Made by a program: the position numbers and the translations under genes. Below, piece by piece: positions 1 through 33,882 of a DNA stretch of 64,000 nt. The notes below the pieces were generated by a model. It saw only the letters and a program-made list of their open reading frames with translations, made no database searches and was not told the DNA's origin. The DNA is taken from sequence record OR637327.1; one strand, written 5' to 3'. The stretch comes from Klebsiella phage iPHaGe-KPN-11i. Position 1 is the stretch's first letter. The number at the start of each line of letters is the position of its first letter.

Positions 1-1635
1 GAAGTCAAAGTTGCTGACGCTACCCATGCGATCTACCTGGACGAAGGGCGCGTGTATGTCCTGAACGCTGCAAACGGTGTTGTGCTGGTTCCAGAACACA
101 TCAAAAACATCTGGGCGCTGGGTGACAACGCGATCAATGATGTTGACGGCTTCGATCCAAACATCGCCAGTGAACAGCAAGTTCTGTATGTCGTGCTTTA
201 TCATGCACTACACACAATGAACCCTGATCTGGCATGGAAAGTGCTTCAAAAGCTGGGTGATGTCCGTCTGATCAAAGCGTATGACAACTGCTTTACCAAA
301 CAGGACTACTCCAACGCAAAAGACCTGATTGCACAGGCTGTTGTAGATCCGTCACAGCGTTTTGTTGATGGTATTGATTACAACATGGTTCCAGACGAAA
401 ACGCGTTCACTCTGGTTGATGCGCTCGAACTGCTGGCACAAACTGACACAGTGATCGACCTGTCTTCTGAGCACTGGGCGTACAACCGCACAGGCCGTCA
501 GACTGTACAGAAAGAAGATGATACACTGGATCAACTGTCTGAACAGATCGCAAACGCTGCAACCCCAGAAGAACGTAAAGCACTGGCGGCGCAAATGGTA
601 GCGCATGAAGTATGGGTTCCGAAGTTCACCCAGACTACAACCAAAGTATCGGTTAAACATCTGGTGGGTAACAGTTCCCGTCCTAACATTTCCATCAACA
701 CGGATCTGGAAGGGTATGTGACTATCCCAGAAAGCAAACAGAAAGAATTCGGTCTGCCGGAAAAAATCGAAACTAAGCAGGTGCGTAACTTCACCATCGT
801 TAAAGATGGTATCGTGAACGTTAAAGTTCTGCCGCTGGAAACCGATATTCCGACACTGAAAAACCTTCGTGCTTCTGGCCTGACTATCAAGCCGCTCGAA
901 AAAATCGGTGATGATCGTATGTCTGTTCTGGTAGACTTTACCTCTCTGCCTCTGGTTAACCGTGGCATGACTCGCGGGTTAAGCGGTAAAGAGTTCGTGA
1001 CTGATAACGTGCGTCTGGAAATCCTGAAAGGCCGTCAGAAGGTTATGAAGTTCTTCCGTGACAACGCGATCGGACTGCGCAACGCAGAAGGGCTGAAACA
1101 GCGCTTTGGTGAGGCTGCGGGTGAATGGCTGTCTGAACAGGGTATTCGTGATTACGGGTTCTCTCCGAAGGTTGAGCGCACAGAATCGACTGATGTTTAC
1201 ATGTCGAAAGAACTGAACGTGAAAATCAAGGGTGTTTCCTCCCTTCCTGCTGTAGCGGCTACCGTCGCGAAGCGTGAAGAAGGTAAGAAGAAACTGAACA
1301 ACGGCGACCTGATTATCCTGTGGGCTTACGATCAGGTGAAATCTGAACTGGATGCGCTTGACAAAGATCAGGTAGTCGAGTATCTTGATAAGCAGACAAA
1401 GGCAACGATTCAGGAAGTCCGTAAACTGAATGCCCGTTTAAGTCGCGTAATGTACGGTGTTGTAGTAGCCCATGCATGGTTCGCGGATCTGGACTTCGAA
1501 GAAACCAAAGTTTCTATCGCTGCGAAAGATATTCTTCCGAAAGAAGATAATATTCCGTCCGATTTCTGGAAAGTCTGGGAAACCACATCATTCGAATGTG
1601 AAATCGTCCTGGAAGAAAAAGAAGTCAAAATCTAA
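1..1635 (+). CDS. hypothetical large protein (5' partial, >527 aa); no family recognised
   Basis: Open frame from position 1 with no upstream stop; ends 1635; followed by a GC hairpin. Confidence 0.5.
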   Translation, partial: EVKVADATHAIYLDEGRVYVLNAANGVVLVPEHIKNIWALGDNAINDVDGFDPNIASEQQVLYVVLYHALHTMNPDLAWKVLQKLGDVRLIKAYDNCFTKQDYSNAKDLIAQAVVDPSQRFVDGIDYNMVPDENAFTLVDALELLAQTDTVIDLSSEHWAYNRTGRQTVQKEDDTLDQLSEQIANAATPEERKALAAQMVAHEVWVPKFTQTTTKVSVKHLVGNSSRPNISINTDLEGYVTIPESKQKEFGLPEKIETKQVRNFTIVKDGIVNVKVLPLETDIPTLKNLRASGLTIKPLEKIGDDRMSVLVDFTSLPLVNRGMTRGLSGKEFVTDNVRLEILKGRQKVMKFFRDNAIGLRNAEGLKQRFGEAAGEWLSEQGIRDYGFSPKVERTESTDVYMSKELNVKIKGVSSLPAVAATVAKREEGKKKLNNGDLIILWAYDQVKSELDALDKDQVVEYLDKQTKATIQEVRKLNARLSRVMYGVVVAHAWFADLDFEETKVSIAAKDILPKEDNIPSDFWKVWETTSFECEIVLEEKEVKI

Positions 1636-1676
1636 CAATGTCCGCCCCCGAAAGGGGGCATATTGAGGAAAATACT

Positions 1677-2303
1677 ATGTCACGTAACGTATTCTGGGAT
1701 GAAGTTGTAAAAGGCGATATCCTGTACCTGTCCGAACCACAAGCCTATCGTGAAAACGACGAAAAGAATCACGCATACGCGCCTATGCTGCCGGATTTCG
1801 TGGTTGTTGATGATGTATTTGTCGGTGAAAATGGCTGGCAGATCGATTTAGTCGGGTTCCCTTACAAAAAGGGTGCAATCCTTCTCGAACTGGAAGACCA
1901 TAATTTCTTCGCCCATGTTGGCAATATCGGAGATCATGGTGAATTCGGTATCGAAGATATCCGCGAAAACCCGTATGTATTCAGCAACTACTACAAGGTC
2001 GGCGGACACCTGCGCAGTGATAACAAAACTGTTCTGTATCTGGATGGTCTTCTGTCTGGAATGCATAATTTCAGCATCGAGAAGCCAGGCAACAGCGCAG
2101 AACTCTACCGCCTGTTTGAGAAGTACAATCATCAAGATGGTAAACTGTTGCCGTCAGAAATGGCTTACATTGTCAACCGTCTGATCATGGGACTACACAA
2201 AACATTCCTGATTCACTTTGACGGTGATATACAACAGGCGATGGAAACTGTGATCACCATCCTGAAAGAAAAATCACGCTGCATGGATACCCTGTCAAAA
2301 TGA
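1677..2303 (+). CDS. hypothetical protein (208 aa)
   Basis: ORF 1638..2303; ATG at 1677 preceded by a GAGG Shine-Dalgarno, directly after the hairpin gcccccgaaagggggc. Confidence 0.5.
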   Translation: MSRNVFWDEVVKGDILYLSEPQAYRENDEKNHAYAPMLPDFVVVDDVFVGENGWQIDLVGFPYKKGAILLELEDHNFFAHVGNIGDHGEFGIEDIRENPYVFSNYYKVGGHLRSDNKTVLYLDGLLSGMHNFSIEKPGNSAELYRLFEKYNHQDGKLLPSEMAYIVNRLIMGLHKTFLIHFDGDIQQAMETVITILKEKSRCMDTLSK

Positions 2304-2491
2304 CTCTATTCTTTATCATTGCATTGGGTGTGTTTATTCTGGGCGCTGCGATTTCATTCATGGCGTTCGATAAGCGCGAATATCAAATGGTTGTCATTGG
2401 CCTTATCGTGGCAAGTATCCCGCTGGTGTTGTCATACAACCTGTATCATGAGAAAATCGCGGAGAACGCGAAATATGAGGCAAGACGATGA
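2300..2491 (+). CDS. small membrane protein (2 TM)
   Basis: 63 aa, two hydrophobic helices; ATGA overlap with the upstream ORF. Confidence 0.45.
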   Translation: MTLFFIIALGVFILGAAISFMAFDKREYQMVVIGLIVASIPLVLSYNLYHEKIAENAKYEARR

Positions 2492-2955
2492 AGATCCGTT
2501 CTGGGTTCGTGAGCAATAGCTCAAGCAGTAGTTTTATCATCGGGGTCGGACTTGTCCGCCCTGGTAAAGAAAAAGAAGTGGCGGCGATTTACGGCGAAAA
2601 CAACATTGAATCGCTGATGGATATGTTTGATGATACTCGTCCTCGCTGGGATTTACCTCAAATACACGATGACGGCACAATCACACTGGAAGCGTTCGGA
2701 TGTAATAGCGTAGAAATAACCCGCATCTGGGACAAGTTGAAAGAACTGAATCTGGATGATGTTAAAATCGTTCACTTCAATGAGCGCGGCGACGAACCGG
2801 AATACGACGATGAAACCGGAAGTTATAACTATGACTGGTATGACGACGCGGACGCATTCGGGCCGGAACTCGAAAAGAAATACAATCTCCTGAGAGATAA
2901 CCGCGAACTGTTTATTGAAGGTGATGTTCGTTGCGGTGGTGGTTATGACGGCTAA
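2488..2955 (+). CDS. hypothetical acidic protein
   Basis: 155-aa ORF; start overlaps the stop of the upstream ORF. Confidence 0.5.
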   Translation: MKIRSGFVSNSSSSSFIIGVGLVRPGKEKEVAAIYGENNIESLMDMFDDTRPRWDLPQIHDDGTITLEAFGCNSVEITRIWDKLKELNLDDVKIVHFNERGDEPEYDDETGSYNYDWYDDADAFGPELEKKYNLLRDNRELFIEGDVRCGGGYDG

Positions 2956-3088
2956 ACGATTGGTGATCTGTTACCGCTGTTTGCATGTGTATGATCACAA
3001 CACAGCGAAGCGAACAGCAACAAAGCGCTTGCGCGTTAAAGAGGCGGAATGTCCTCTCTGTAAATGTAAAATCTGTTTGGGGTAATCC

Positions 3089-3379
3089 ATGATAACGATA
3101 GTATACTGGGAAGAACTGGAAAGCGAATTCAGTGATGAAGCTGGAGAAATGGCTGCTGTAGCGGGTGAATCTGAAATGCTTACAGCTACCGAAAGTATGG
3201 ATGATGCATTTGATCGCATCAAGAAACACCAGAAAGAAAACGAAGGTCGGGATATTCAGTACATGCTATCGTTCTGGCTGGATGGTGAAATCTTCTGTCA
3301 TGCTGCTATTGCTGAGGATACTCCGGTCGATATGTGTCGTGAAGAAATCGTGAAGTACGTCAAATCTTTTATGCATTAA
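3089..3379 (+). CDS. hypothetical acidic protein
   Basis: 96-aa ORF with SD-like tggggtaatccATG. Confidence 0.45.
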   Translation: MITIVYWEELESEFSDEAGEMAAVAGESEMLTATESMDDAFDRIKKHQKENEGRDIQYMLSFWLDGEIFCHAAIAEDTPVDMCREEIVKYVKSFMH

Positions 3380-3397
3380 TTAAATGAGAATTGAAAA

Positions 3398-4051
3398 ATG
3401 GCTTATGTATCTAAAAAAATTGAAATAATTTCGTCGATGATGGGTAAAACCCTGGAAGAGATCGACCGGATTGGGAAGAACTTTAAAGATGAAGTTTTCC
3501 GTTTACCTGAACGTGAAATAAATTTAATCCCGCATTTCAACACGGTTAAAATTCTGATCGATCCTGGTTTTGGATTGACGGCAACTCATTACATTGTCGG
3601 TAATGTCCCGTATATGTTCGTGTTCAGAAAATCTAAGCTGATTGCGTATTTCGATCGCGCTAATCTTGGACACATTCGGGCAATCATCGACCGGATCGAC
3701 CGTTATGAAGTCGGGAATTACACGGAACAAACCAGACGCACTACATACGGAAAGATTACGAGTATGCTGGAACAAACCAAACAATTCGACGGAGCTAACA
3801 TCGAATTGATTGATGACCTGCTAAAAAGAATCAACAAGTTCAAAGAAGCGTTTGACGTAAAGAAAACTGTGATTGCTGAACCAGAAACGGTGAAAGCACC
3901 AACCCTGTCATCTTTCGAAGAACCAGAAACCATTCCAGTAAACACAGCGTTGAAATACATCATCGAAATCGAACCAACAGATCTTGATGCAACATGTAAA
4001 GCATTGAATTCTATAGGGATTAATTTCACTCTCTATAATAAATTCAGTTAA
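3398..4051 (+). CDS. hypothetical protein
   Basis: 217-aa ORF; followed by a terminator hairpin at 4056-4085. Confidence 0.55.
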   Translation: MAYVSKKIEIISSMMGKTLEEIDRIGKNFKDEVFRLPEREINLIPHFNTVKILIDPGFGLTATHYIVGNVPYMFVFRKSKLIAYFDRANLGHIRAIIDRIDRYEVGNYTEQTRRTTYGKITSMLEQTKQFDGANIELIDDLLKRINKFKEAFDVKKTVIAEPETVKAPTLSSFEEPETIPVNTALKYIIEIEPTDLDATCKALNSIGINFTLYNKFS

Positions 4052-4055
4052 CCCA

Positions 4056-4130
4056 AAAAGCCCTTGCGTTCGCGTGAGGGCTTTGTTATATTACACATAT
4101 CGAAACGGAACAGCCAAAAGGAACGAGAAC
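4056..4130 (+). promoter_or_regulatory. PeSL-like cassette: terminator hairpin + promoter + conserved leader (ATCGAAACGGAACAGCCAAAAGGAAC)
   Basis: aaaagcccttgcgttcgcgtgagggctttgttatattacacatatcgaaacggaacagccaaaaggaac; matches copies at 13640-13722(-), 33883-33965(-), 59876-59948 and 60305-60386. Confidence 0.55.
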
Positions 4131-4346
4131 ATGAAAGCTAAAATGATGAAGTTCGTAAAAGACTGGAGAAAAGGCGCGACAATCGGTGAGAGCTACGTAA
4201 TCGTAGACATCGAAAGCAACCTGCTCGAAGGTGCGAACGTTTTAGAAGTTCCTCGTTACGGTATGGTTGAAGCCGCTGATAAAGCAAAAGAACTGAATGG
4301 TTACGTTCTCCACATCATCGAAGCAATCGAGAAGGAATTAGCATGA
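4131..4346 (+). CDS. hypothetical protein (71 aa)
   Basis: ATG 4131 with AAGGAAC SD inside the conserved leader; in-frame part of ORF 4074..4346. Confidence 0.5.
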   Translation: MKAKMMKFVKDWRKGATIGESYVIVDIESNLLEGANVLEVPRYGMVEAADKAKELNGYVLHIIEAIEKELA

Positions 4347-4573
4347 ACAGCGTTTATCTGATTGAAGAAACCATTATCCAGCCAAACGGCGGAGTGTATG
4401 AAAAGAATATCGTGTGTGCTGCCCTGGATGAACAAGAGGCAAATCACAAAGTGAAATATTTAAATGAAAATGCTGTTGTATGTCAGACGTATTCCGGTTA
4501 TAGTGTTGCATATGCTTGGAAAGCGGTTAGTTTAGAAACCCAACCATCTTGGTTAATCAACCTGAAAAAATAA
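4343..4573 (+). CDS. hypothetical protein
   Basis: 76 aa; ATGA overlap with the upstream gene. Confidence 0.45.
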   Translation: MNSVYLIEETIIQPNGGVYEKNIVCAALDEQEANHKVKYLNENAVVCQTYSGYSVAYAWKAVSLETQPSWLINLKK

Positions 4574-4583
4574 GGGGCTTATC

Positions 4584-5081
4584 ATGAAAATGAATTACGT
4601 TCGCGGCGGTATCATGGCACTGTTACTGAAAGGTGTTTCTCGTAGTGAGAATCGTATGGGTATGGGGCCGATGGGTAAAGTCTGGTCTGTCTATATTGGC
4701 GGTGACTGTATCGGTTACATCGGCAATGATGGATTGAGCCGCGTTTACCTGGCTATCTCAAGCGGAGGCCGTGAAGTCGAATGTAGTAATTTCATGCAAG
4801 CACTTGCGCAGTTCATTGATACTGCGATTACTCAGATTGAAAAACAGGGTTGTATCGAACGTCGTTACGCGAACAAGATCGGGATGATTGAATATTCCAA
4901 CTTCTGCTTCGAAGTCGAAGAAGTGCGTTATGATACGATGGATGAAGTATACGAATATGTGCTTCGTGGTGAGGAAGTGATTAAGTCCTATAACGGGACG
5001 AAGGTTGTCAATAACCGCTCTTTCATCACTCCGTTCGAATTGCGATATCAACAGCTAATGGGCTGGATCGTGATGGAATAA
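4584..5081 (+). CDS. hypothetical protein
   Basis: 165 aa; SD aaggggcttatcATG. Confidence 0.5.
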   Translation: MKMNYVRGGIMALLLKGVSRSENRMGMGPMGKVWSVYIGGDCIGYIGNDGLSRVYLAISSGGREVECSNFMQALAQFIDTAITQIEKQGCIERRYANKIGMIEYSNFCFEVEEVRYDTMDEVYEYVLRGEEVIKSYNGTKVVNNRSFITPFELRYQQLMGWIVME

Positions 5082-6824: not shown

Positions 6825-7686
6825 ATTGTCCTGTAACCACACCACGAACGGCAATTGCTGCCCCTTCGATAAGTGATTGTTTGAATCCGTCCCAACCTTC
6901 TTTATCTGCTTCGACAAGCCAGCCTGTTTTATAGGCAAAGTCAACAGTGAATGTCCAGATTTCGTTATTGCTTTCATAACTCAGTTCTGGATTGCTGACT
7001 TTAACAGGCAAACACTTCTGGAATACATACGTGCTGTGCGGGACACCATCGCGATTGTGTAAGTTTACCTGGATCGCGCTTGATACTTCATCAATGAATG
7101 CGAACTGGCCTGAGACATCATCACGAATAGCTGATAACCATTCGTTGAATACTTTCAGGTTACGCGCTTCTGAATCCACACGGAACGTTAGCGATAATTC
7201 ACCATTCTCCGGTCGGGTGAATCGGATCTGGGGTACACCGCCATTATACACGTATTCATAACCCAGTGTTTTACCAGGCAACTGAACACCAACGATGCTC
7301 AACCCCATATTATACATCATTTTGTCACGGAATTCTGTTAGCATCTGTCCGTAAACACTATCACCAAACAGGGAAGTAATTAAACGAGGGCTTAACGCCC
7401 CCATGATTTTACTGAAACCTGTTTTGTTCAGGGACATAATAGCTTTATCAACTGTATAGCTGAATAGCTTGCTTACGCCCCCTGTAATAGCGTTCATGAA
7501 CTCGTTCGGGTTATTCGCGTTAATGGAACTCATAGTACCATCTATTAAAGTATCGCGGATACTCCCTATCGTGCTATCGAGAATGCGTGATGCTGGACTG
7601 GTTGCGAATACAACACTAAACAGGTTGCTTCGCTGAAAGTCTCTATTTGCCATTCCTGACAAAAATTCATCTACGCTATAGAACAT
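6823..7686 (-). CDS. 54: baseplate tail tube initiator gp54
   Basis: N-terminus FLSGMANRDFQRSNLFSVVFATSP aligns to T4 gp54 (ADFQRNNMFSCVFATTP). Confidence 0.7.
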   Translation of the reverse strand: MFYSVDEFLSGMANRDFQRSNLFSVVFATSPASRILDSTIGSIRDTLIDGTMSSINANNPNEFMNAITGGVSKLFSYTVDKAIMSLNKTGFSKIMGALSPRLITSLFGDSVYGQMLTEFRDKMMYNMGLSIVGVQLPGKTLGYEYVYNGGVPQIRFTRPENGELSLTFRVDSEARNLKVFNEWLSAIRDDVSGQFAFIDEVSSAIQVNLHNRDGVPHSTYVFQKCLPVKVSNPELSYESNNEIWTFTVDFAYKTGWLVEADKEGWDGFKQSLIEGAAIAVRGVVTGQ

Positions 7687-7695
7687 TGTTCCCCC

Positions 7696-8781
7696 TTAAT
7701 ACTGCGTATCAAAAATCGAATCCTGACGCATATCGATCAGTTCCATAAACTGAATTTCGATTTCAACTGCGATCGGGGTGTTCGGTGATTCTCTCAACGT
7801 ATTTACAATGTTGTCCATTGTACGCCCGAAACGAACGCTGGTAATACCTGCTGGCCCAAATGTAGAATGAGGGAACCGCAAACTGTCACCTGTCTGGAAG
7901 TCACGAATAAACCACACAGGAGGCGATTTAATAACTTCAACGTTCGATACGAAGTCAACAATCTGATCCCCGATACTGCCGTTGAAATCGCTTGCTGTCG
8001 TCTGGTTTGTTGATGGTGCAAAAACGTTTGCAACCTTCGAAGCGCTGGAATTATACGCTTGCTTAACCAGTCCGGCTAATTCTGCTGGAGTACCACCCGA
8101 AGTAGTACCATAACCCAACACCGTGAACAGGTAATAGATTTTAATCAGTTCCAGCAGGTCATAACGGCTTTCGATAACGAATGTATTGTAATACATCTTT
8201 GTGCGCTTATCAGAGCCTTGAAACGCTGCTTTCGTACCGATGTCGATTGCTTCCCTACGGTCTGCCAGAATACCACCAGAAACGGATTCTACAGCGCCCC
8301 AGATAACGTTTGATACTGCACGGGATAGACCTTTAGCAACAATACTATCGGTCGCGTCCTGATAGCGGTGTGAGTTCACTTCGTTATCGTTCAGGCTTCG
8401 CGGTAAAAGTATTTGACAAATTGGGTTAAGTGTACCCATAGTACGGGTATTCAAAACCTGTTTGTATCGAACGTTCCCAGTGTTGGCACTAAGGATCTGT
8501 TGCGCGTTCTGTGCGGCCTGACGCAATGAGCGATAGTTATCTTTGCTTCCTGGTGCAAGTCCACCACTGAAATCATATGCTGTAAACAGCAAGCCGTTAT
8601 TATAAAGGCTTGATGCGTTGTACGCGTTATCAATACCTGCTGCACGTTGGGAAGGAAATTCCGCTGTTACGATCGGTTGAGTCAACGCGTTTTTAGTTGT
8701 TGCAGCACCCCCAGAGGGGATGCCAGCATTTTTGATTTCAGCAAATGATTGTACAGTGTCTTGCAATACTGTAATTTTCAT
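7696..8781 (-). CDS. 48: baseplate tail tube cap gp48-like
   Basis: 361 aa (T4 gp48 is 364 aa), located between the gp29-like and gp54 genes. Confidence 0.55.
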   Translation of the reverse strand: MKITVLQDTVQSFAEIKNAGIPSGGAATTKNALTQPIVTAEFPSQRAAGIDNAYNASSLYNNGLLFTAYDFSGGLAPGSKDNYRSLRQAAQNAQQILSANTGNVRYKQVLNTRTMGTLNPICQILLPRSLNDNEVNSHRYQDATDSIVAKGLSRAVSNVIWGAVESVSGGILADRREAIDIGTKAAFQGSDKRTKMYYNTFVIESRYDLLELIKIYYLFTVLGYGTTSGGTPAELAGLVKQAYNSSASKVANVFAPSTNQTTASDFNGSIGDQIVDFVSNVEVIKSPPVWFIRDFQTGDSLRFPHSTFGPAGITSVRFGRTMDNIVNTLRESPNTPIAVEIEIQFMELIDMRQDSIFDTQY

Positions 8782-18685: not shown

Positions 18686-18781
18686 AATGTCATCCTCAAA
18701 GTTAAGTTGTATTGCCTACGTGGTTAAAGATACAAGAAAGCCGGATTCAGTGCAAGCATTATTTTGCATAAAAACGAAAAA

Positions 18782-18806
18782 AGCCGCCACCTTTCGGCAA
18801 CGGCTT
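18782..18806 (-). terminator. rho-independent terminator (minus strand)
   Basis: Minus strand reads gccgttgccgaaaggtggcggctttttt. Confidence 0.55.
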
Positions 18807-18811
18807 CATTT

Positions 18812-19093
18812 TTAATACTTTTCTTCTGGCTGGAACACCGCACGACACGCCCACATAGAGGCTTCTTTCAGTCGGTCTTTCGCCTTTTGGATTTGATGGA
18901 TACGTTCAAGCATCGCATCGAGTTCTTCGGTAGTGAATGAATCGGTATCTGATACCGCGTAATCACTTGAATACTCTTCATCAAGTTCTTTGAAGATTTC
19001 GCCCAGGGCAACTTCTGCGGCCTTGATGCGGTTTACTTTGTCGATCTTTTCTTTCGAGTGGGGCTTATAGCCCTGTACGTCTTCAATCGCCAT
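18812..19093 (-). CDS. hypothetical acidic protein
   Basis: 93 aa; ATGG overlap with the upstream gene. Confidence 0.45.
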   Translation of the reverse strand: MAIEDVQGYKPHSKEKIDKVNRIKAAEVALGEIFKELDEEYSSDYAVSDTDSFTTEELDAMLERIHQIQKAKDRLKEASMWACRAVFQPEEKY

Positions 19094-19455
19094 TATATAC
19101 TCTCTGTAAAGGTTCGGGCGATAACGTCGCGCTGTTGTTCAGGAGTCAGTGAATTGAAACGCACTGCATAGCCGGACACACGGATCGTTAACTGCGGGTA
19201 TTTTTCTGGATGCTTCACAGCATCTTCCAGAGTTTCACGGCGCAACACGTTTACGTTTAAGTGTTGTCCACCTTCCACTTTAACAGTGGGTTGAAATTCA
19301 ATATCAACTTCACGTTTTGCGAATGGAGCAACGCGAGCTTTACCGATCACTGAATCCATTTCGATGGTTTTGGATACCACCACACGAACATCATTACCTT
19401 CTTCCAGGTAGATTGTACCAGTGTGTAAACCTTCTAAAATCTGATATGCTTTCAT
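19093..19455 (-). CDS. grcA: autonomous glycyl-radical cofactor GrcA/YfiD-like protein
   Basis: C-terminal [61 protein letters not shown] contains the RVSGY glycyl-radical signature and matches E. coli GrcA almost exactly. Confidence 0.8.
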
Positions 19456-19459
19456 TGTA

Positions 19460-20029
19460 TTACCTTTCTACGACATAATAACGTAACGGGTTGATATGGA
19501 ACGCCAGCATTGCACGATCCAGCCCGTTAGGGTCAGTTACTTCCTGTTTCAGTTTCCACCCGCAATACACGCGTAAGCAGAACTGAACCTTTCCGACTTT
19601 AAGCCACGGTTTGAAGACATAAAGCCCCCATGCCGAATCATTCCACATCAACAGATAACCGTGACGCGAAGGATCGGAACCACCTTCTGTTTTCGGGTTG
19701 CCCTTCCAGGCGAAGTCTGACTGTGCTTCACGCCCTAAGACGTGATAAGCGAAGTTGTACGCTTTGTTACGCCACAACCAGCCTACACGTTGCGCATACA
19801 CACCCAGATCGCCTAAGTGATACCGGATGTTAGCCCAACGCCGGATATGTCCACCATCACCATCGATCGGGTTATCGAATGTTTCCATCCAACGGAACCC
19901 TTTAGGTAAGTGTCCGGTTTCGTCACTGTAGAACGGAACCACGAAAGGAGCCAGCAGAATAGCCAGAACACCCGAAAGAATATCCAGGGGAACCAGTACA
20001 AGCCAGCTTGCGTATTTCAAAAAGCGCAT
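19460..20029 (-). CDS. membrane-anchored hypothetical protein
   Basis: 189 aa; N-terminal TM helix, Trp/Gly-rich remainder. Confidence 0.5.
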
Positions 20030-20031
20030 AT

Positions 20032-20068
20032 GCTTCTCCAGAAAAAAGGCTATCCGAAGATAGCCTGT
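20032..20068 (-). terminator. rho-independent terminator (minus strand)
   Basis: Minus strand reads caggctatcttcggatagccttttttctgg. Confidence 0.55.
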
Positions 20069-20640: not shown

Positions 20641-20716
20641 TGGAGCAGGTGAAGGGACTCGAACCCTCAACAATCTGGATGGAAACCAGATATTCTACCA
20701 ATTGAACTACACCTGC
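20641..20716 (-). tRNA. tRNA-Gly (anticodon UCC)
   Basis: Minus strand GCAGGTGTAGTTCAATTGGTAGAATATCTGGTTTCCATCCAGATTGTTGAGGGTTCGAGTCCCTTCACCTGCTCCA folds as a cloverleaf: 7-bp acceptor stem, anticodon loop TTTCCAT, TTCGAGT T-loop, CCA end. Confidence 0.8.
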
Positions 20717-20721
20717 GTATT

Positions 20722-20798
20722 TGGTGGCCCCTGCTGGATTCGAACCAGCAACCGCGCGATTATGAGTCACCCGCTCTAACCAATTAAGCTAAAGGGCC
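20722..20798 (-). tRNA. tRNA with CAU anticodon (Met, or Ile2 if lysidine-modified as in T4 tRNA-Ile)
   Basis: Minus strand GGCCCTTTAGCTTAATTGGTTAGAGCGGGTGACTCATAATCGCGCGGTTGCTGGTTCGAATCCAGCAGGGGCCACCA has anticodon loop CTCATAA, T-arm GCTGG/TTCGAAT/CCAGC and a CCA end. Confidence 0.75.
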
Positions 20799-25733: not shown

Positions 25734-26909
25734 TTACGCGTATTTTTGTCGCCATTTTGCATAGGCTTCGTCGCTGATCTCAGTGTTGAGGTTGCCAACC
25801 AGGTAAGAACTAACTTCAACTTCCTGCGGGGCTACCTGTACGTTGTCAGACTTCAACCATTTGTTCATCCACGGATACGGGTTTGGCGTTGGTTTAAACG
25901 GAGACTGCAAGCCAACCGCGCGCATACGCTGATCCGTCAGGTGTTCGATATATGCGATCGTACTTTTCAGGGATACGCCGTCTACATCACCGATAGAGAA
26001 CAAATGTTCAGCCCATTCTTTTTCCTGTTCGTATACTTCCAGGAAAATCTTTGTCGCTTCCTCTTCGTACTGGTAAGCGATTTCCGCCATTTCTGGATCG
26101 TCTTTACCCATCTGCCAGAGTCGGATCTTGCTTTGAGTGCCTTTCTGGTGAAGTGCTTCATCACGGGCAATCAGGCGCATGATCTTCGCGTTACCTTCCA
26201 TCTTGCCTTGTTCGGCAAAGTTGAACGTGAAGGTAAACGACACGTAGAAGCGGATCGCTTCCAGAGCGTTGACAGCGTGCATACACAGGTACAGAGCAAC
26301 CTTACATTTACGCATTTGCTCTTTGCGTTTCTTCTCGTACTCTGCGATCGATTCGTCTGGGTATCCGTGGGACGTTAACATTTCGATTTTGAGCACAATG
26401 TTTTTCAGTTCGTGACACTCTGCGATCAGATCATCGTAGTATTTTGTCATGGAAGCCGAACGTTTCATGATCGCTTCGTTGCGCAGAATCTTATCGAACT
26501 CTTTAGACGGATCGATGTGTAGGTTACGCTGAATGTGCGTATAGCTGCGGCTATGGATTGTTTCACTGAACGCCCATGTTTCGATCCACGTTTCCATAGA
26601 GACATCGGAAGCGATAGGGAGGAACGCCAGGTTCGGGCCGCGCCCCTGAATGGTATCCAGCAGGGTTTGATATTGCAGGTTCGAATCGAAAATGATTTTT
26701 TCGTGATCCGGCATTTTCGCGTACTGCATACGGTCGATCGATAAGTCAATTTCTTCTGGACGCCAGAAGAATGACAGTTGTTTTTCAGTCAGTGTTTCGA
26801 ATACACGGTGTTTCTGTTCTTCGTATCGTGCTACGCCCGTATCCTCACCGAAGAACATAGGCTGTTCTAAGTGTTTGTGATCTGGGTTTGTGTTCATTAC
26901 AGTTAACAT
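25734..26909 (-). CDS. nrdB: ribonucleotide reductase small subunit NrdB
   Basis: Diiron/tyrosyl-radical RNR beta family; 391 aa, uninterrupted (no intron). Confidence 0.9.
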   Translation of the reverse strand: MLTVMNTNPDHKHLEQPMFFGEDTGVARYEEQKHRVFETLTEKQLSFFWRPEEIDLSIDRMQYAKMPDHEKIIFDSNLQYQTLLDTIQGRGPNLAFLPIASDVSMETWIETWAFSETIHSRSYTHIQRNLHIDPSKEFDKILRNEAIMKRSASMTKYYDDLIAECHELKNIVLKIEMLTSHGYPDESIAEYEKKRKEQMRKCKVALYLCMHAVNALEAIRFYVSFTFTFNFAEQGKMEGNAKIMRLIARDEALHQKGTQSKIRLWQMGKDDPEMAEIAYQYEEEATKIFLEVYEQEKEWAEHLFSIGDVDGVSLKSTIAYIEHLTDQRMRAVGLQSPFKPTPNPYPWMNKWLKSDNVQVAPQEVEVSSYLVGNLNTEISDEAYAKWRQKYA

Positions 26910-26947: not shown

Positions 26948-29194
26948 TCAAATTTTGCAACCTTCGCAATCTTCCGCTTCTTCCTCACCTGCACCGTCGC
27001 GGGTGTTGTGGTAGTACAGCGTTTTGATGCCGAAATAGTTTGCATACAGCAGATCTTCGAGGATGGTTTCAGATTTCACTTTACCATCTGGGAAGTTAGC
27101 CGGGTCATAGTTGGTGTTTGCAGAGATAGCCTGATCAACAAACTTCTGCATAACCGCTACATGAGACAGATAACCTTTGTTTCCACGTTTTGCCATTGTC
27201 CAGAGATAATCATAGAAGTCAATCTGATTATTCTGGTTTGGTACTACCTGATTGAATGAACCTTCTTTCGAAGATTTCACACTCACAGGGCCGCGCGGAG
27301 GTTCAATCCCGTTGGTTGAGTTACTCACCTGTGAGCTACTTTCACAAGGCATTAAAGCAGAAAGCGTTGAGTTACGCAAGCCATGTTTTTTGATTTCACC
27401 GCGTAACCATTCCCAATCGCAGTTATACACAGGTGATGCCAGTTCATCAACGTTTTTGCAGTACCAGTCAATAGGCAACAGCCCTTGTGCATATTTCGTT
27501 TCGTGGAACAGTCCACATGCACCACGTTCCTGTGCGAGTTCCATAGAGGCAACCAGCAGGTTAAATTGAAACGCTTCCATCAACTCATGAACGTTTCCGG
27601 CGTATGCTTCGGAGTAGTCGCAATAGTTGCTTGCCAGCCATGATGCATAGTTGGTAATACCAACACCCAGAGAACGACGCTGTTTGGCTTTCAGAGCCGC
27701 TGCAACAGGGTAGTTCTGATAATCCAGCAGGTTATCCAGTGCTCGTACTGCGATGCGTGTAAGGGCTGGGAATTCGCTTATATCGGCATTATCGAGAACG
27801 ATCGCCATAAGCGTACACAGTCCAATTTCGCCAGCCAGTTTATCATCGTCATCCAGTGGTGAAGTTGGGATCGCGATTTCACAGCACAGGTTCGACATAC
27901 GAACCGGAACAGAGAAACTACCCTGCTGGTTTACGTGATGACTGTTGAAAATGTAGTTGCGTCCGGTCTGTGCGCGTTCCTGAACAAGCAACTGGAACAG
28001 ATCTACCGCTTTGATGCGTTTCTTGCGTACCGTTGGGTCTTTTTCAAGACTGGTATACAGTTCTTCAAACTCAGTCTGATCCGCTTGATAGAACGCGTCA
28101 TACAGGCGATCGTTCGCAACGTCAGGGCTGAACAGAGTGATGTAATCGTTATTGATTAAACGCTTATACATCAAATCGTTAAGCTGTACGCCATAATCCA
28201 GGTGACGAATACGGTTTTCTTCAACGCCACGGTTATTTTTCAGAACCAGTAGGTTTTCAACTTCAAGATGCCAGATCGGATAATACAGGGTTGCTGCACC
28301 ACCACGAACACCGCCCTGGGAACAAGATTTAACCGCCGTCTGAATGTGTTTCCAGAACGGGATAACGCCTGTATGGACTGCTTCACCACCACGGATTTTT
28401 GAACCCATAGCGCGAATGTGTCCGGCGTTGACACCAATACCAGCACGTTGAGAGATATACTTCACGATCGCGGACGTAACAGCGTTCAGAGAACCCAGAG
28501 AATCACCCGATTCGATTACAACACAACTGGAGAACTGACGCGTAGGAGTACGCACACCCGCCATAATAGGCGTAGGCAATGACAGTTTACGATCCGAAAT
28601 CGCGTTATAGAAGTCAACCACATGACTGATTTTATCAGCGTGTTTTTCGTCCTGATGCAGACACATCGCGATCAGCATGAATGCATACTGTGGTGTTTCG
28701 TAGATGTCGCCGGACGTGCGATCCTGCAACAGATATTTCCCGATCAACTGCTGAACGCCAGCATACGAAAATTCAAAATCTTTATCGTGATTGATTTTCG
28801 ATTCCAGATAATCAATCTCCGCTGGAGTCCATTTTGCCAGGATTTCTTTATCGTATTTCCCAGCGAGAACCAGATTAGCGATGTGGTCGTAGAACGGAAT
28901 CGGGTCAAACTGTCCGTAAACGGTTTTACGAAGGGCGAACATTTCGAGGTTAGCCGCTACATACTGCCAGTCAGGTTCTTTTGCGGAGATTCGATCCGCT
29001 GCATACTTGATCGCTACAGCCTGGATCTGTTTGGTAGTCATACCATCACGAAGCAGGTCAACGACACTTTCAAGGAATGCGTTAACATCAATATTTCTTC
29101 CAATACTCGCCCAATTAAGGACTTTGAACAGTTTTTCTTTTTCGAACGTTTGACTTACGCCAGAAGACTTCACTACTGTTTTAATATCACTCAT
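26948..29194 (-). CDS. nrdA: ribonucleotide reductase large subunit NrdA
   Basis: 748 aa; ATP-cone N-terminus, catalytic NLCCEI and C-terminal CEGCKI redox cysteines. Confidence 0.9.
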   Translation of the reverse strand: MSDIKTVVKSSGVSQTFEKEKLFKVLNWASIGRNIDVNAFLESVVDLLRDGMTTKQIQAVAIKYAADRISAKEPDWQYVAANLEMFALRKTVYGQFDPIPFYDHIANLVLAGKYDKEILAKWTPAEIDYLESKINHDKDFEFSYAGVQQLIGKYLLQDRTSGDIYETPQYAFMLIAMCLHQDEKHADKISHVVDFYNAISDRKLSLPTPIMAGVRTPTRQFSSCVVIESGDSLGSLNAVTSAIVKYISQRAGIGVNAGHIRAMGSKIRGGEAVHTGVIPFWKHIQTAVKSCSQGGVRGGAATLYYPIWHLEVENLLVLKNNRGVEENRIRHLDYGVQLNDLMYKRLINNDYITLFSPDVANDRLYDAFYQADQTEFEELYTSLEKDPTVRKKRIKAVDLFQLLVQERAQTGRNYIFNSHHVNQQGSFSVPVRMSNLCCEIAIPTSPLDDDDKLAGEIGLCTLMAIVLDNADISEFPALTRIAVRALDNLLDYQNYPVAAALKAKQRRSLGVGITNYASWLASNYCDYSEAYAGNVHELMEAFQFNLLVASMELAQERGACGLFHETKYAQGLLPIDWYCKNVDELASPVYNCDWEWLRGEIKKHGLRNSTLSALMPCESSSQVSNSTNGIEPPRGPVSVKSSKEGSFNQVVPNQNNQIDFYDYLWTMAKRGNKGYLSHVAVMQKFVDQAISANTNYDPANFPDGKVKSETILEDLLYANYFGIKTLYYHNTRDGAGEEEAEDCEGCKI

Positions 29195-31208: not shown

Positions 31209-32984
31209 TTAGTATTTCAAGCGCCAAAGAGCTATTGCTTCATCAACTGCTTTTTTAATTTCTTCCGGCGTGTCTTTGCGTCCGGCTTTAACCAGGGCAG
31301 AGAGCATAGAACGAATGGTTGCATTCATCTGTGACTTCTCACGATCCATCTGTGCCTGATGCGCCTTATCAACCGCTGGGGCTTCTTTCTTCGCTGCCTG
31401 TGGTTTCGTAGGCTGTGCGCCTAACTCGTCCTTAGCTTGCGTTTCAGTGCGTTTCTGTTCGGCTTCTTTCTTCACATGAGGTGCGGAGAATTTACCAGCC
31501 TTGAAGTTATCACGCATACCTTCCAGGATCTTACGGGCTGTGTACCAGTCAGCAACACCACGAAGTTGTTTCAGGGTATCAACCAGCAAACCGATACTTG
31601 CGCCTTTGCTATCCTCGTCAATGTCGATATCTTTCAACCATTCAACATGTTTCTGACCGGAGTGCATGAAATCAAAGCTGCTGAAACTCCAGAAACCTTT
31701 GCGGTTGCTGATCTCGCGTTTGAAGTGGAAAGTCAAACCCGCGCCGTTATCAAACTCACCGTAGTTACTGCGGAATGTTGCCCCTGCTTGTTTCAGTGCG
31801 TTGAAATAGTCATCTTTATTGATGCGGTTAACGGTGCGTTTTGGTTTCTCTTCCGGCGCTGGTGCTGCTGCTTGCTGTGCGGTACGTTTAACAAAAGATG
31901 CTGAACGATGCCCCGCTGCAAACTCTGCGTTCATCCGGTCGATTACCGCTGCGATGCCGCTTGCGTCTGGTTTCACTTTCTGCATTTCTTTGAAAGTGTC
32001 GATGATCATATCCAGACATGCACCGTCTTCATCTTCCAGCATAGTACCTTTCAGACGTTCAGCAGGTTTGAATTTGTTCACAGTTGGGTCAACAACATAC
32101 TGGAACACATACGCGCCTTTACGCATGAATACGTGACGGTAGAAGTGAACTTTATAGTGTCCAACATCAACAATAACATCGTTACCGCTAACCTTCGCAC
32201 CCAGGATACGGGCAAAGGATGTCATGTAGTCCGCGCGTTTGAACTTGAGATCCTTCTTAGTCGGGCTAAAGATGGATTCCAGTTTCTTAGTAGGGAACAG
32301 GCTTTCCGGCGTGATTTTGTCTGGGTTCTTGCCCCATTGGTAATCACGGCTTGCCATTTTGTGTTTCTTCGTACCAACCAGAACCAGAGTATTAACTGAT
32401 ACGTTACCCAGTGCGGACGCGTCCGGCGCTGCTAAACCTTGACCGTTCGGCGGTTGACAAGAGAAAGAGAAGTCAAAGAACGCATCACCAGAGGTGAAAC
32501 GATATGTCGCGTGAACAGTATGACCGCGAACTTCGCTGATTGACTGAGTATAGGTTGTTGGTTGTCCGGTGAATTTCGTGAAGTATTCCGCGAACTCTTG
32601 CGCGTTGAATTTCGTGCTGAAATAGTTTTTCGCAACCACGAAATACGCTGCAAATTTTTCTTCCCATGCTTTTTTGTTTGCTGCGTGTTCTGCGCGAACA
32701 TCACTGTAAGTTTTACCAGCGCTGTTTGTTTTGGTTACAACGTCATACGCCTGGTTGATTTTCTGCATGAGTTCAGTGCTACCACCACGGTCGGGGTGAT
32801 TGCGCAGAGAAGCACGTTTAAAGAGCTTTGACAGTTCAGCTTTAGATTCGTCGCCAGTAGCGCCCAAAATCTTCAATGCTTCGCTGTGTGACATTTGTTC
32901 GTTAATCATTTTCCGTTCCTCAAAATAAAAGCCCATGTAACTCAGTACACGGGCAACTTTAAGGTATTTATGTTTTGCTGTCAA
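31209..32984 (-). CDS. J-domain (DnaJ-like) protein with large uncharacterised C-terminal region
   Basis: N-terminal EALKILGATGDESKAELSKLFKRASLRNHPDRGGSTELMQKINQAYDVV is a canonical J domain with the HPD motif; about 500 further residues have no recognisable domain. Confidence 0.75.
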   Translation of the reverse strand: MTAKHKYLKVARVLSYMGFYFEERKMINEQMSHSEALKILGATGDESKAELSKLFKRASLRNHPDRGGSTELMQKINQAYDVVTKTNSAGKTYSDVRAEHAANKKAWEEKFAAYFVVAKNYFSTKFNAQEFAEYFTKFTGQPTTYTQSISEVRGHTVHATYRFTSGDAFFDFSFSCQPPNGQGLAAPDASALGNVSVNTLVLVGTKKHKMASRDYQWGKNPDKITPESLFPTKKLESIFSPTKKDLKFKRADYMTSFARILGAKVSGNDVIVDVGHYKVHFYRHVFMRKGAYVFQYVVDPTVNKFKPAERLKGTMLEDEDGACLDMIIDTFKEMQKVKPDASGIAAVIDRMNAEFAAGHRSASFVKRTAQQAAAPAPEEKPKRTVNRINKDDYFNALKQAGATFRSNYGEFDNGAGLTFHFKREISNRKGFWSFSSFDFMHSGQKHVEWLKDIDIDEDSKGASIGLLVDTLKQLRGVADWYTARKILEGMRDNFKAGKFSAPHVKKEAEQKRTETQAKDELGAQPTKPQAAKKEAPAVDKAHQAQMDREKSQMNATIRSMLSALVKAGRKDTPEEIKKAVDEAIALWRLKY

Positions 32985-33063: not shown

Positions 33064-33882
33064 CTACTTTTTGAAAGTTTTTGTGATGAACATGATGGTG
33101 CTTAAATGTTCAGGTGCTACGGTTTCAGTGTATCCATCTTTCATCTGGGTTTTGGATACATAACCAGTTTTACCAGATAATTGTTTCTTGATCTCTTTCT
33201 CGATCTCTAAAGGAATATTACCATCTTCGAAATGAAATTCTTCAAACAATTCATGAGTAAAACGAGATTTATTAATCTGTCGTTTCATTCGAAATTCTAC
33301 AGTGTTATTAGTGATCCCGAACTTGATCGCGTAAAGAGCACTATTTTTAAATAATTTCTGAACATAGAAATTACCTGGTTTATTTGGACGATAGCCATAC
33401 ACACAACAATCACAACAACGAGTTCCACTATTAACAAAATTATTATATGACATAGAATTGTTATGTCCTTTTGGACAAGTAAAACTAAATTTAGATTCAA
33501 TTCCATTATAACCATCATCAAATTTTATATTGGTATAGTCAGGTGCAACTTTTTTGATATTATCAACTGCTTGTTTTTCTGTATGTCTGCGATTTGCTAC
33601 ACATTTTTTACACCGCTGACCATAGTTAAAAAACTTAAAATAACTCATGAAATGGCTATGTCCTTTTGGACAAATGAAGTTAAATTTAGTGTGATTGCCT
33701 TTCCAGGGTAATATCCATCCATTAAATATAAACCCTTCTTTTTTACATAAATACAACAAATTTTCTTCAAAGAAAGAAGGATGTTTTGCTGCCCCGCGTT
33801 TTACGAAAGGAATATCTTTAGCCATTACCAGTTTTACAGAATCTTCACAATTACCGCACATCACATTCATCCTTTTGTCCAA
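33064..33882 (-). CDS. Cys-rich zinc-ribbon repeat protein with GIY-YIG-like C-terminal segment (possible mobile nuclease)
   Basis: Repeated CPKGH-x-MSY...C..C units; GNFYV...YAIKFGIT resembles a GIY-YIG core; locally AT-rich; PeSL-like promoter immediately upstream. Confidence 0.45.
   Translation of the reverse strand: MDKRMNVMCGNCEDSVKLVMAKDIPFVKRGAAKHPSFFEENLLYLCKKEGFIFNGWILPWKGNHTKFNFICPKGHSHFMSYFKFFNYGQRCKKCVANRRHTEKQAVDNIKKVAPDYTNIKFDDGYNGIESKFSFTCPKGHNNSMSYNNFVNSGTRCCDCCVYGYRPNKPGNFYVQKLFKNSALYAIKFGITNNTVEFRMKRQINKSRFTHELFEEFHFEDGNIPLEIEKEIKKQLSGKTGYVSKTQMKDGYTETVAPEHLSTIMFITKTFKK

Follow-up and report, generated by a model that had tools for sequence, protein, structure and literature searches.

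Two glycyl-radical spare parts, YfiD (GrcA) of E. coli and Y06I of phage T4, have been validated biochemically, and both receive their radical from PFL activase (PMC8683613; review PMC13450708). Both proteins restore pyruvate formate-lyase (PFL) that was cleaved by oxygen (Wagner et al. 2001, via PMC8683613). YfiD adopts in its residues 61-127 the fold of PFL residues 693-759, while its residues 1-60 are disordered and promote both the binding of cleaved PFL and the installation of the radical (PMC8683613). Knowledge of this family, of its representatives in phages and of what they do biochemically dates back to 2001, and the present analysis adds little to it; the gene described here is real, intact and strongly constrained, and it belongs to a family which is already characterised and annotated. 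In the literature, no experiment was found on this particular protein or on the in vivo role of such a protein in any phage, and nothing that treats GrcA from phages as an auxiliary metabolic gene, or that deals with it in T4-like phages, turned up.

The window, meaning here the whole stretch of 64,000 nucleotides from Klebsiella phage iPHaGe-KPN-11i (OR637327.1) which was analysed, possesses one such gene. It is collinear with the genome of Enterobacter phage Taquito (Straboviridae, Pseudotevenvirus) at 94-98% nucleotide identity. The GrcA-like open reading frame (ORF) runs from ATG to TAA, and its translation includes the exact peptide quoted in the original prediction. It was the sole ORF in the window in which a motif scan found a genuine glycyl-radical motif. 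The positions of the gene, its parts and the surrounding features are given in Table 1.

Table 1. Features of the GrcA-like locus and other features discussed in the text (positions in the window; minus, complementary strand).
Feature	Position	Strand	Basis or remark
GrcA-like gene, 120 aa	19093..19455	-	ORF list; PF01228; 6OWR; PHROG 1209; T4 vs.6; Taquito match
N-terminal half, residues 1-60	19276..19455	-	phage-clade version; the corresponding YfiD region is disordered in E. coli and assists in binding cleaved PFL and in activation
C-terminal glycyl-radical domain, residues 61-120	19096..19275	-	equivalent to YfiD 68-127 and PflB ~700-759
RVSGY glycyl-radical fingerprint, R92-Y96	19168..19182	-	motif scan
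G95 codon, predicted radical site	19171-19173	-	alignment to GrcA G102 and PflB G734
Shine-Dalgarno-like GAAAGG	19463..19468	-	7 nt upstream of the GrcA-like ATG; read from the sequence
Upstream DUF7338 gene, 189 aa	19460..20029	-	Pfam PF24027, E=5.2e-65; PHROG 2143
Downstream Acb2/Vs.4-type gene, 93 aa	18812..19093	-	Pfam PF24729 (Acb2_Tad1_hairpin), E=2e-16
Terminator-like hairpin, UUCG loop and T-run	20047..20066	-	consensus scan and sequence; pattern match only
Strong terminator-like hairpin, 12 bp stem and T-run	18780..18807	-	consensus scan and sequence; pattern match only
tRNA-Gly(UCC) gene	20641-20716	-	just upstream of the gene block
tRNA-Met(CAT) gene	20722-20798	-	just upstream of the gene block
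nrdB (class Ia)	25734-26909	-	
nrdA (class Ia)	26948-29194	-	
591-aa ORF	31209-32984	-	sub-threshold DnaJ-domain match
ORF with CapR homology domain	33064-33882	-	weak zinc-ribbon match in addition

The gene is packed tightly between its neighbours. The stop codon of the DUF7338 gene lies 4 nt ahead of the GrcA-like ATG, and the Shine-Dalgarno sequence of the GrcA-like gene falls within the final codons of this upstream gene. On the other side, the ATG of the Acb2-like gene overlaps the GrcA-like stop codon (ATAATG). These three genes form a block bracketed by two hairpins, one standing just upstream of it and the other directly after the Acb2-like gene, where it closes the block. A promoter scan found no sigma-70 consensus promoter upstream on the coding strand of the block, and the transcription of the GrcA-like gene probably reads through from upstream. 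No anaerobic-metabolism gene adjoins the gene in the window. The Acb2-like protein shares 54% identity with the product of T4 vs.4 (E=3e-30) and presumably acts as a nucleotide sponge against CBASS; the annotation of Klebsiella phage Roth88 gives the label 'acb2' to another neighbouring gene. The DUF7338 protein has a hydrophobic N-terminus, and its gene keeps the position directly upstream in Taquito and in one metagenomic phage contig. An ORF matching it in size and position is also present in Klebsiella Slopekvirus phages. An assignment of the DUF7338 gene to T4 vs.8 or vs.7 was rejected, as they are unrelated.

Domain analysis identified the protein as a phage-encoded autonomous glycyl-radical protein of the GrcA/YfiD type, as predicted originally. 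The Pfam Gly_radical profile (PF01228) scored 66.9 bits against a gathering cut-off of 22.2 (E=2.7e-18). The best match in the PDB was E. coli GrcA/YfiD (6OWR, E=4.9e-42), with residues 19-120 aligned, followed by residues 690-758 of PflB (E=2.3e-26). The C-terminal part is conserved most: from E61 to S119 all 59 residues are identical to E. coli GrcA, and only the final residue differs (I against L), which makes 59 of 60 and confirms the near-identity claimed for the last 60 or so residues. The same block is identical to the C-terminus of PflB (700-758) at 48 of 59 positions (81%). It carries the motif RVSGYAV at residues 92-98, in which G95 aligns with the radical glycine, so that the RVSGY region is conserved with the radical sites of both GrcA and PflB. 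The ORF stands alone, bounded by separate genes and with no fusion to a catalytic barrel. Against the bacterial GrcA equivalog profile TIGR04365 the protein reached 155.3 bits, below the cut-off of 170 bits, and this shortfall is due to the N-terminal half; T4 Vs.6 also stays below the cut-off with 151.1 bits, and E. coli GrcA scores 233.9. Single-sequence AlphaFold2 gave an unusable model with a mean pLDDT of 35.8.

The protein matched PHROG 1209 end to end, with residues 1-120 on profile positions 1-121 (E=2.6e-59), and was 99.2% identical to the 'autonomous glycyl radical cofactor' of Taquito. It shares 75% identity over the full length of 120 aa with the product of T4 vs.6, which RefSeq annotates as GrcA. 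Y06I is taken here to be this product, on the basis of UniProt naming, and the RefSeq annotation fits this assumption. Judged from these similarities, the window gene is an ortholog of T4 vs.6 (Y06I) in a Pseudotevenvirus-like phage of the T4 type. Homologs were found in 1,587 phage records, comprising T4-like, T5-like and jumbo phages of Escherichia, Salmonella, Klebsiella, Aeromonas and others. The homologs of Klebsiella phages Roth88, VAC66 and Roth66 possess L77 and E81 (ETLLDAVEHPEKY), and these positions are E77 and K81 in the window and in E. coli phages, as in E. coli GrcA. Such a difference might be a sign that the domain tracks variants of host GrcA or PflB.

T4 vs.6 (7558-7920 of the T4 stretch) was compared with E. 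coli grcA (439-822 of the E. coli stretch). Starting at grcA nucleotide 200 and as far as the stop codon, the two are nearly identical at the nucleotide level (pS=0.02), and upstream of this point they are unrelated; the breakpoint is sharp and lies near the YfiD domain boundary. In a megablast search with E. coli grcA, 753 phage records matched only positions ~200-384, 639 of them at 95% identity or more. By this pattern of matches, host sequence has taken the place of the radical domain in the T-even phages that infect E. coli, Shigella and Yersinia. Gene conversion of the domain from host to phage is indicated, and the window lineage shows no sign of it.

The N-terminal half showed a different kind of relationship. 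As predicted for the first ~55 residues, this part differs from GrcA: its 60 residues share ~26% identity with bacterial GrcA (range 21-36%). It is not foreign to the family, since homology is detectable from residue 18-19 on in the HMMER and PDB alignments. Six phage sequences (window, T4, Serratia BF, E. coli TH47, T5-like RA40 and Aeromonas Aeh1) were compared with bacterial GrcA. The five-residue LNSFW segment (L-x-N-S-(F/I)-W) is present in 80 of 80 bacterial sequences and in none of the six from phages, while an MKA.Q-type start is common to all six, the phage-type N-terminus reading MKAYQIL.G... In NJ trees the phage N-halves formed a clade against the 80 bacterial N-halves in 100 of 100 bootstraps; the C-halves gave a phage clade in 0 of 100. 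The N-half is also constrained, with dN/dS of 0.08-0.11 against the Klebsiella Slopekvirus homologs. On these alignments, it is a phage-clade-specific but homologous form of the YfiD N-terminal half and no foreign module. Its low identity (~26%) suggests that the PFL-binding properties of the window protein could differ from those of YfiD. In Klebsiella phage vB_Kpn_AM_K6, a 55-aa ORF (3001-3168 of the stretch compared) matches only in its first ~45 residues, which are of the phage N-terminal type, and then loses the reading frame. This ORF has the look of a vs.6 gene in decay, and the gene is therefore dispensable in some phages.

Repair of PFL is the best-supported function of the protein, by orthology to the validated Vs.6/Y06I, in line with the suggestion that it could sustain anaerobic energy metabolism. 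By analogy with these proteins, it would act as a cofactor of the GrcA/YfiD type which repairs PFL through host PflA, and this reading is given a probability of about 80%. In an infection under low or fluctuating oxygen, O2 would cleave host PflB at its radical glycine. The phage protein would attach to the cleaved PflB through its N-terminal half, its C-terminal domain would take the place of the lost PflB segment, and host PflA would install the radical on G95, upon which catalysis could resume. The production of acetyl-CoA/ATP and formate might in this way be kept up once the phage has silenced host gene expression, when host GrcA would no longer be replenishable. Host PflA is the expected activase because the sole glycyl-radical-enzyme activase of Taquito is NrdG; no PflA homolog was found in Taquito, and its second radical-SAM protein is of the SPASM type and not a glycyl-radical activase. 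Identity, orthology, intactness, selection and context of the gene were observed directly in the sequences, the biochemistry was shown for T4 Y06I and E. coli YfiD, and from both we infer this in vivo role.

PFL is the source of formate. NrdD of the T4/E. coli type (class III RNR) uses formate as reductant (PMC4390871, PMC4493059). The genes nrdD and nrdG, for which the original prediction proposed a check, did not turn up in the 64-kb window, nor did any other radical-SAM gene (tblastn), and the RNR encoded there is the class Ia pair nrdA and nrdB. Both NrdD and NrdG are encoded in the near-identical Taquito genome, ~100 kb from the GrcA-like gene. In other phages the genes lie together. Six Aeromonas T4-like phages (Aeh1, phiAS5, PX29, Ah1, phiWae14 and AsFcp_4) have the homolog immediately after nrdG and overlapping it, and in Serratia phage BF and E. 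coli phage TH47 it has nrdD on one side and nrdG on the other; the cluster stretches examined were 2025-2878 of Aeh1, 1-3781 of Serratia BF and 1-4634 of E. coli TH47, each in its own numbering. This embedding in nrdD-nrdG clusters occurs in three separate phage groups, and in the window lineage, T4 and T5-like phages the gene is found elsewhere. All six sampled phage genomes which carry the GrcA-like gene also encode NrdD. The nrdD gene of TH47 is interrupted by ~1.2 kb (297-1471) between two collinear tblastn segments. As in T4 nrdD, an intron or an inserted homing endonuclease may account for the interruption.

The use of formate by NrdD, the presence of nrdD and nrdG in the relative and the place of the gene in nrdD-nrdG clusters together suggest a possible benefit from formate. 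We infer, more tentatively than the repair itself, that PFL repair may supply formate for anaerobic dNTP synthesis of the phage, an idea which draws on synteny in other phages and on textbook biochemistry. A broader form of this idea makes the spare part a member of an anaerobic dNTP-supply module of the phage (PFL to formate to class III RNR), with occasional conversion by host grcA. Such conversion may keep the radical domain matched to PflB and PflA, and it is visible in the T-even phages and not recent in the window. In its bolder version, phage NrdG may activate the spare part independently of host PflA. The module as a whole is a possible reading but a rather doubtful one.

A direct partnership with class III RNR has also to be considered, either as a spare domain for O2-cleaved NrdD or as a radical carrier activated by NrdG. 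The cluster positions in Aeromonas phages, Serratia BF and E. coli TH47 and the occurrence of NrdD in every sampled carrier agree with it, and a review (PMC13450708) leaves open the question of spare parts for glycyl-radical enzymes apart from PFL. However, the suggestion that the protein services the radical of a phage class III RNR found no support in the sequence. Its BLASTP comparison with Taquito NrdD was not significant (E=2.5), and the C-terminus of NrdD possesses a CxxC...CxxC zinc ribbon and an RRTCGYLG loop, while the window protein has no cysteine and no zinc ribbon. The domain is 100% GrcA-like and 81% PflB-like, and the gene lies far from nrdD and nrdG in the window lineage and in T4. 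The overwriting of the T-even domain by E. coli grcA itself is moreover hard to fit with a partner other than PflB/PflA. A role in RNR maintenance is accordingly judged improbable.

The protein could instead modulate the glycyl-radical metabolism of the host without repairing it, by competing for PflA, capping cleaved PflB or TdcE, or redirecting carbon flux, and its phage-specific N-terminus would then alter the choice of partner. This would make sense of an N-half that is phage-specific and constrained, given that the same half governs cleaved-PFL binding and activation efficiency in YfiD, and it would suit a gene adjoining a host-defence antagonist (Acb2-like). But PFL activity was restored in vitro by T4 Y06I (PMC8683613), whose N-terminus is of this type too, and the perfectly kept C-terminal domain, which forms the catalytic site, would be needless for an inhibitor. 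Modulation in place of PFL repair is therefore regarded as highly improbable.

The near-identity of the C-terminal domain had been taken as a sign of recent capture from an enterobacterial host, and this was not borne out at the nucleotide level. Over the 59 identical codons, 65% of the synonymous sites differ from E. coli grcA (pS=0.65; NG86 dS ~1.5), with dN=0. For scale, E. coli and Serratia show a dS of 0.9 over the same block. The dS of the block was at least about 1.0 against each of the 81 bacterial species sampled, the lowest value being that of Morganella (~1.0), in a sample from which Klebsiella and most Enterobacter species are absent; against Enterobacter sichuanensis, synonymous sites were saturated. 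The best nucleotide identity of the block was 85% among E. coli grcA and 80 bacterial species, and all 5,426 complete E. coli genomes matched at 80-90% only (80.5% in the ten listed). Two exact-match scans of a metagenome collection with window-specific 22/23-mers (0 and 1 match) found no bacterial contig, the single match being a phage contig with the gene order of the window. GC3 of the block is 0.46, near the GC content of the window (0.445).

Comparison with phages gave the same picture. Set against the homologs from Klebsiella Slopekvirus phages, both halves show an equal dS (~0.8-0.96), and therefore neither half was replaced since the split from these lineages. The dN/dS of the C-half in this comparison is 0.03-0.04. 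A dN of 0 together with a high dS means that the identity in amino acids reflects very strong purifying selection and not recency. The intact ORF under such selection also excludes a pseudogene fragment. Almost no credence is left for a recently acquired piece of host grcA, carried as a passenger or decaying fragment without phage-specific function: the identical C-terminal amino acids, the transfer of this segment to T4 and ~640 other phage records (with a nucleotide identity of 95-99.5% to E. coli grcA) and the truncated remnant in vB_Kpn_AM_K6 speak for it, and it is opposed by the synonymous divergence, base composition, k-mer and half-by-half results above and by an intact ORF with dN/dS of 0.03-0.11 which is conserved in 1,587 phage records. 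The idea of capture would be right for T4, not for the window. The embedding in nrdD/nrdG clusters and the host-derived 3' half of the T-even gene could guide in vivo tests, and neither is specific to the window.

The short spare parts GrcA2 and GrcA3 (NF008341, NF038360; ~80 aa) lack the N-terminal half of ~50-60 residues that is present in the window protein, whose C-terminal domain scores 93-106 bits on their profiles, under the cut-offs of 145 and 158 bits. With the C-terminus of NrdD (Taquito/T4) it has in common the Pfam superfamily, as PF01228 also matches NrdD residues 580-684, and the core R-x-(S/C)-G-Y; there is no significant pairwise similarity, and the zinc ribbon and the RRTCGYLG loop belong to NrdD. 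The C-terminal radical domain of PflB (~693-759; PDB 1H16, 2PFL) is the segment which the spare part replaces. The window protein lacks the fused catalytic barrel of 700 residues found in PflB, and its 11 substitutions in the 59-residue block are of the GrcA type. E. coli GrcA/YfiD (6OWR; TIGR04365) is likewise a small stand-alone protein with the same C-terminal 59 residues, including RVSGYAV. The window protein is seven residues shorter, is without the L(L/I/V)NSFW segment and has an N-half only ~26% identical, and its gene is situated in a lytic phage and not beside ung/eamB. In comparison with T4 Vs.6 (Y06I), the C-terminal domain is identical at 58 of 59 positions and the N-terminal half at 54%. 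The 3' half of the window gene is 84% identical to E. coli grcA (pS 0.65), whereas the pS of T4 is 0.02, and the window locus is without vs.5, vs.7 and vs.8 and has the DUF7338 gene upstream instead. Both proteins are 120 aa long, possess the phage-type N-terminus and belong to PHROG 1209, and both genes are followed by a gene of the vs.4/Acb2 type.
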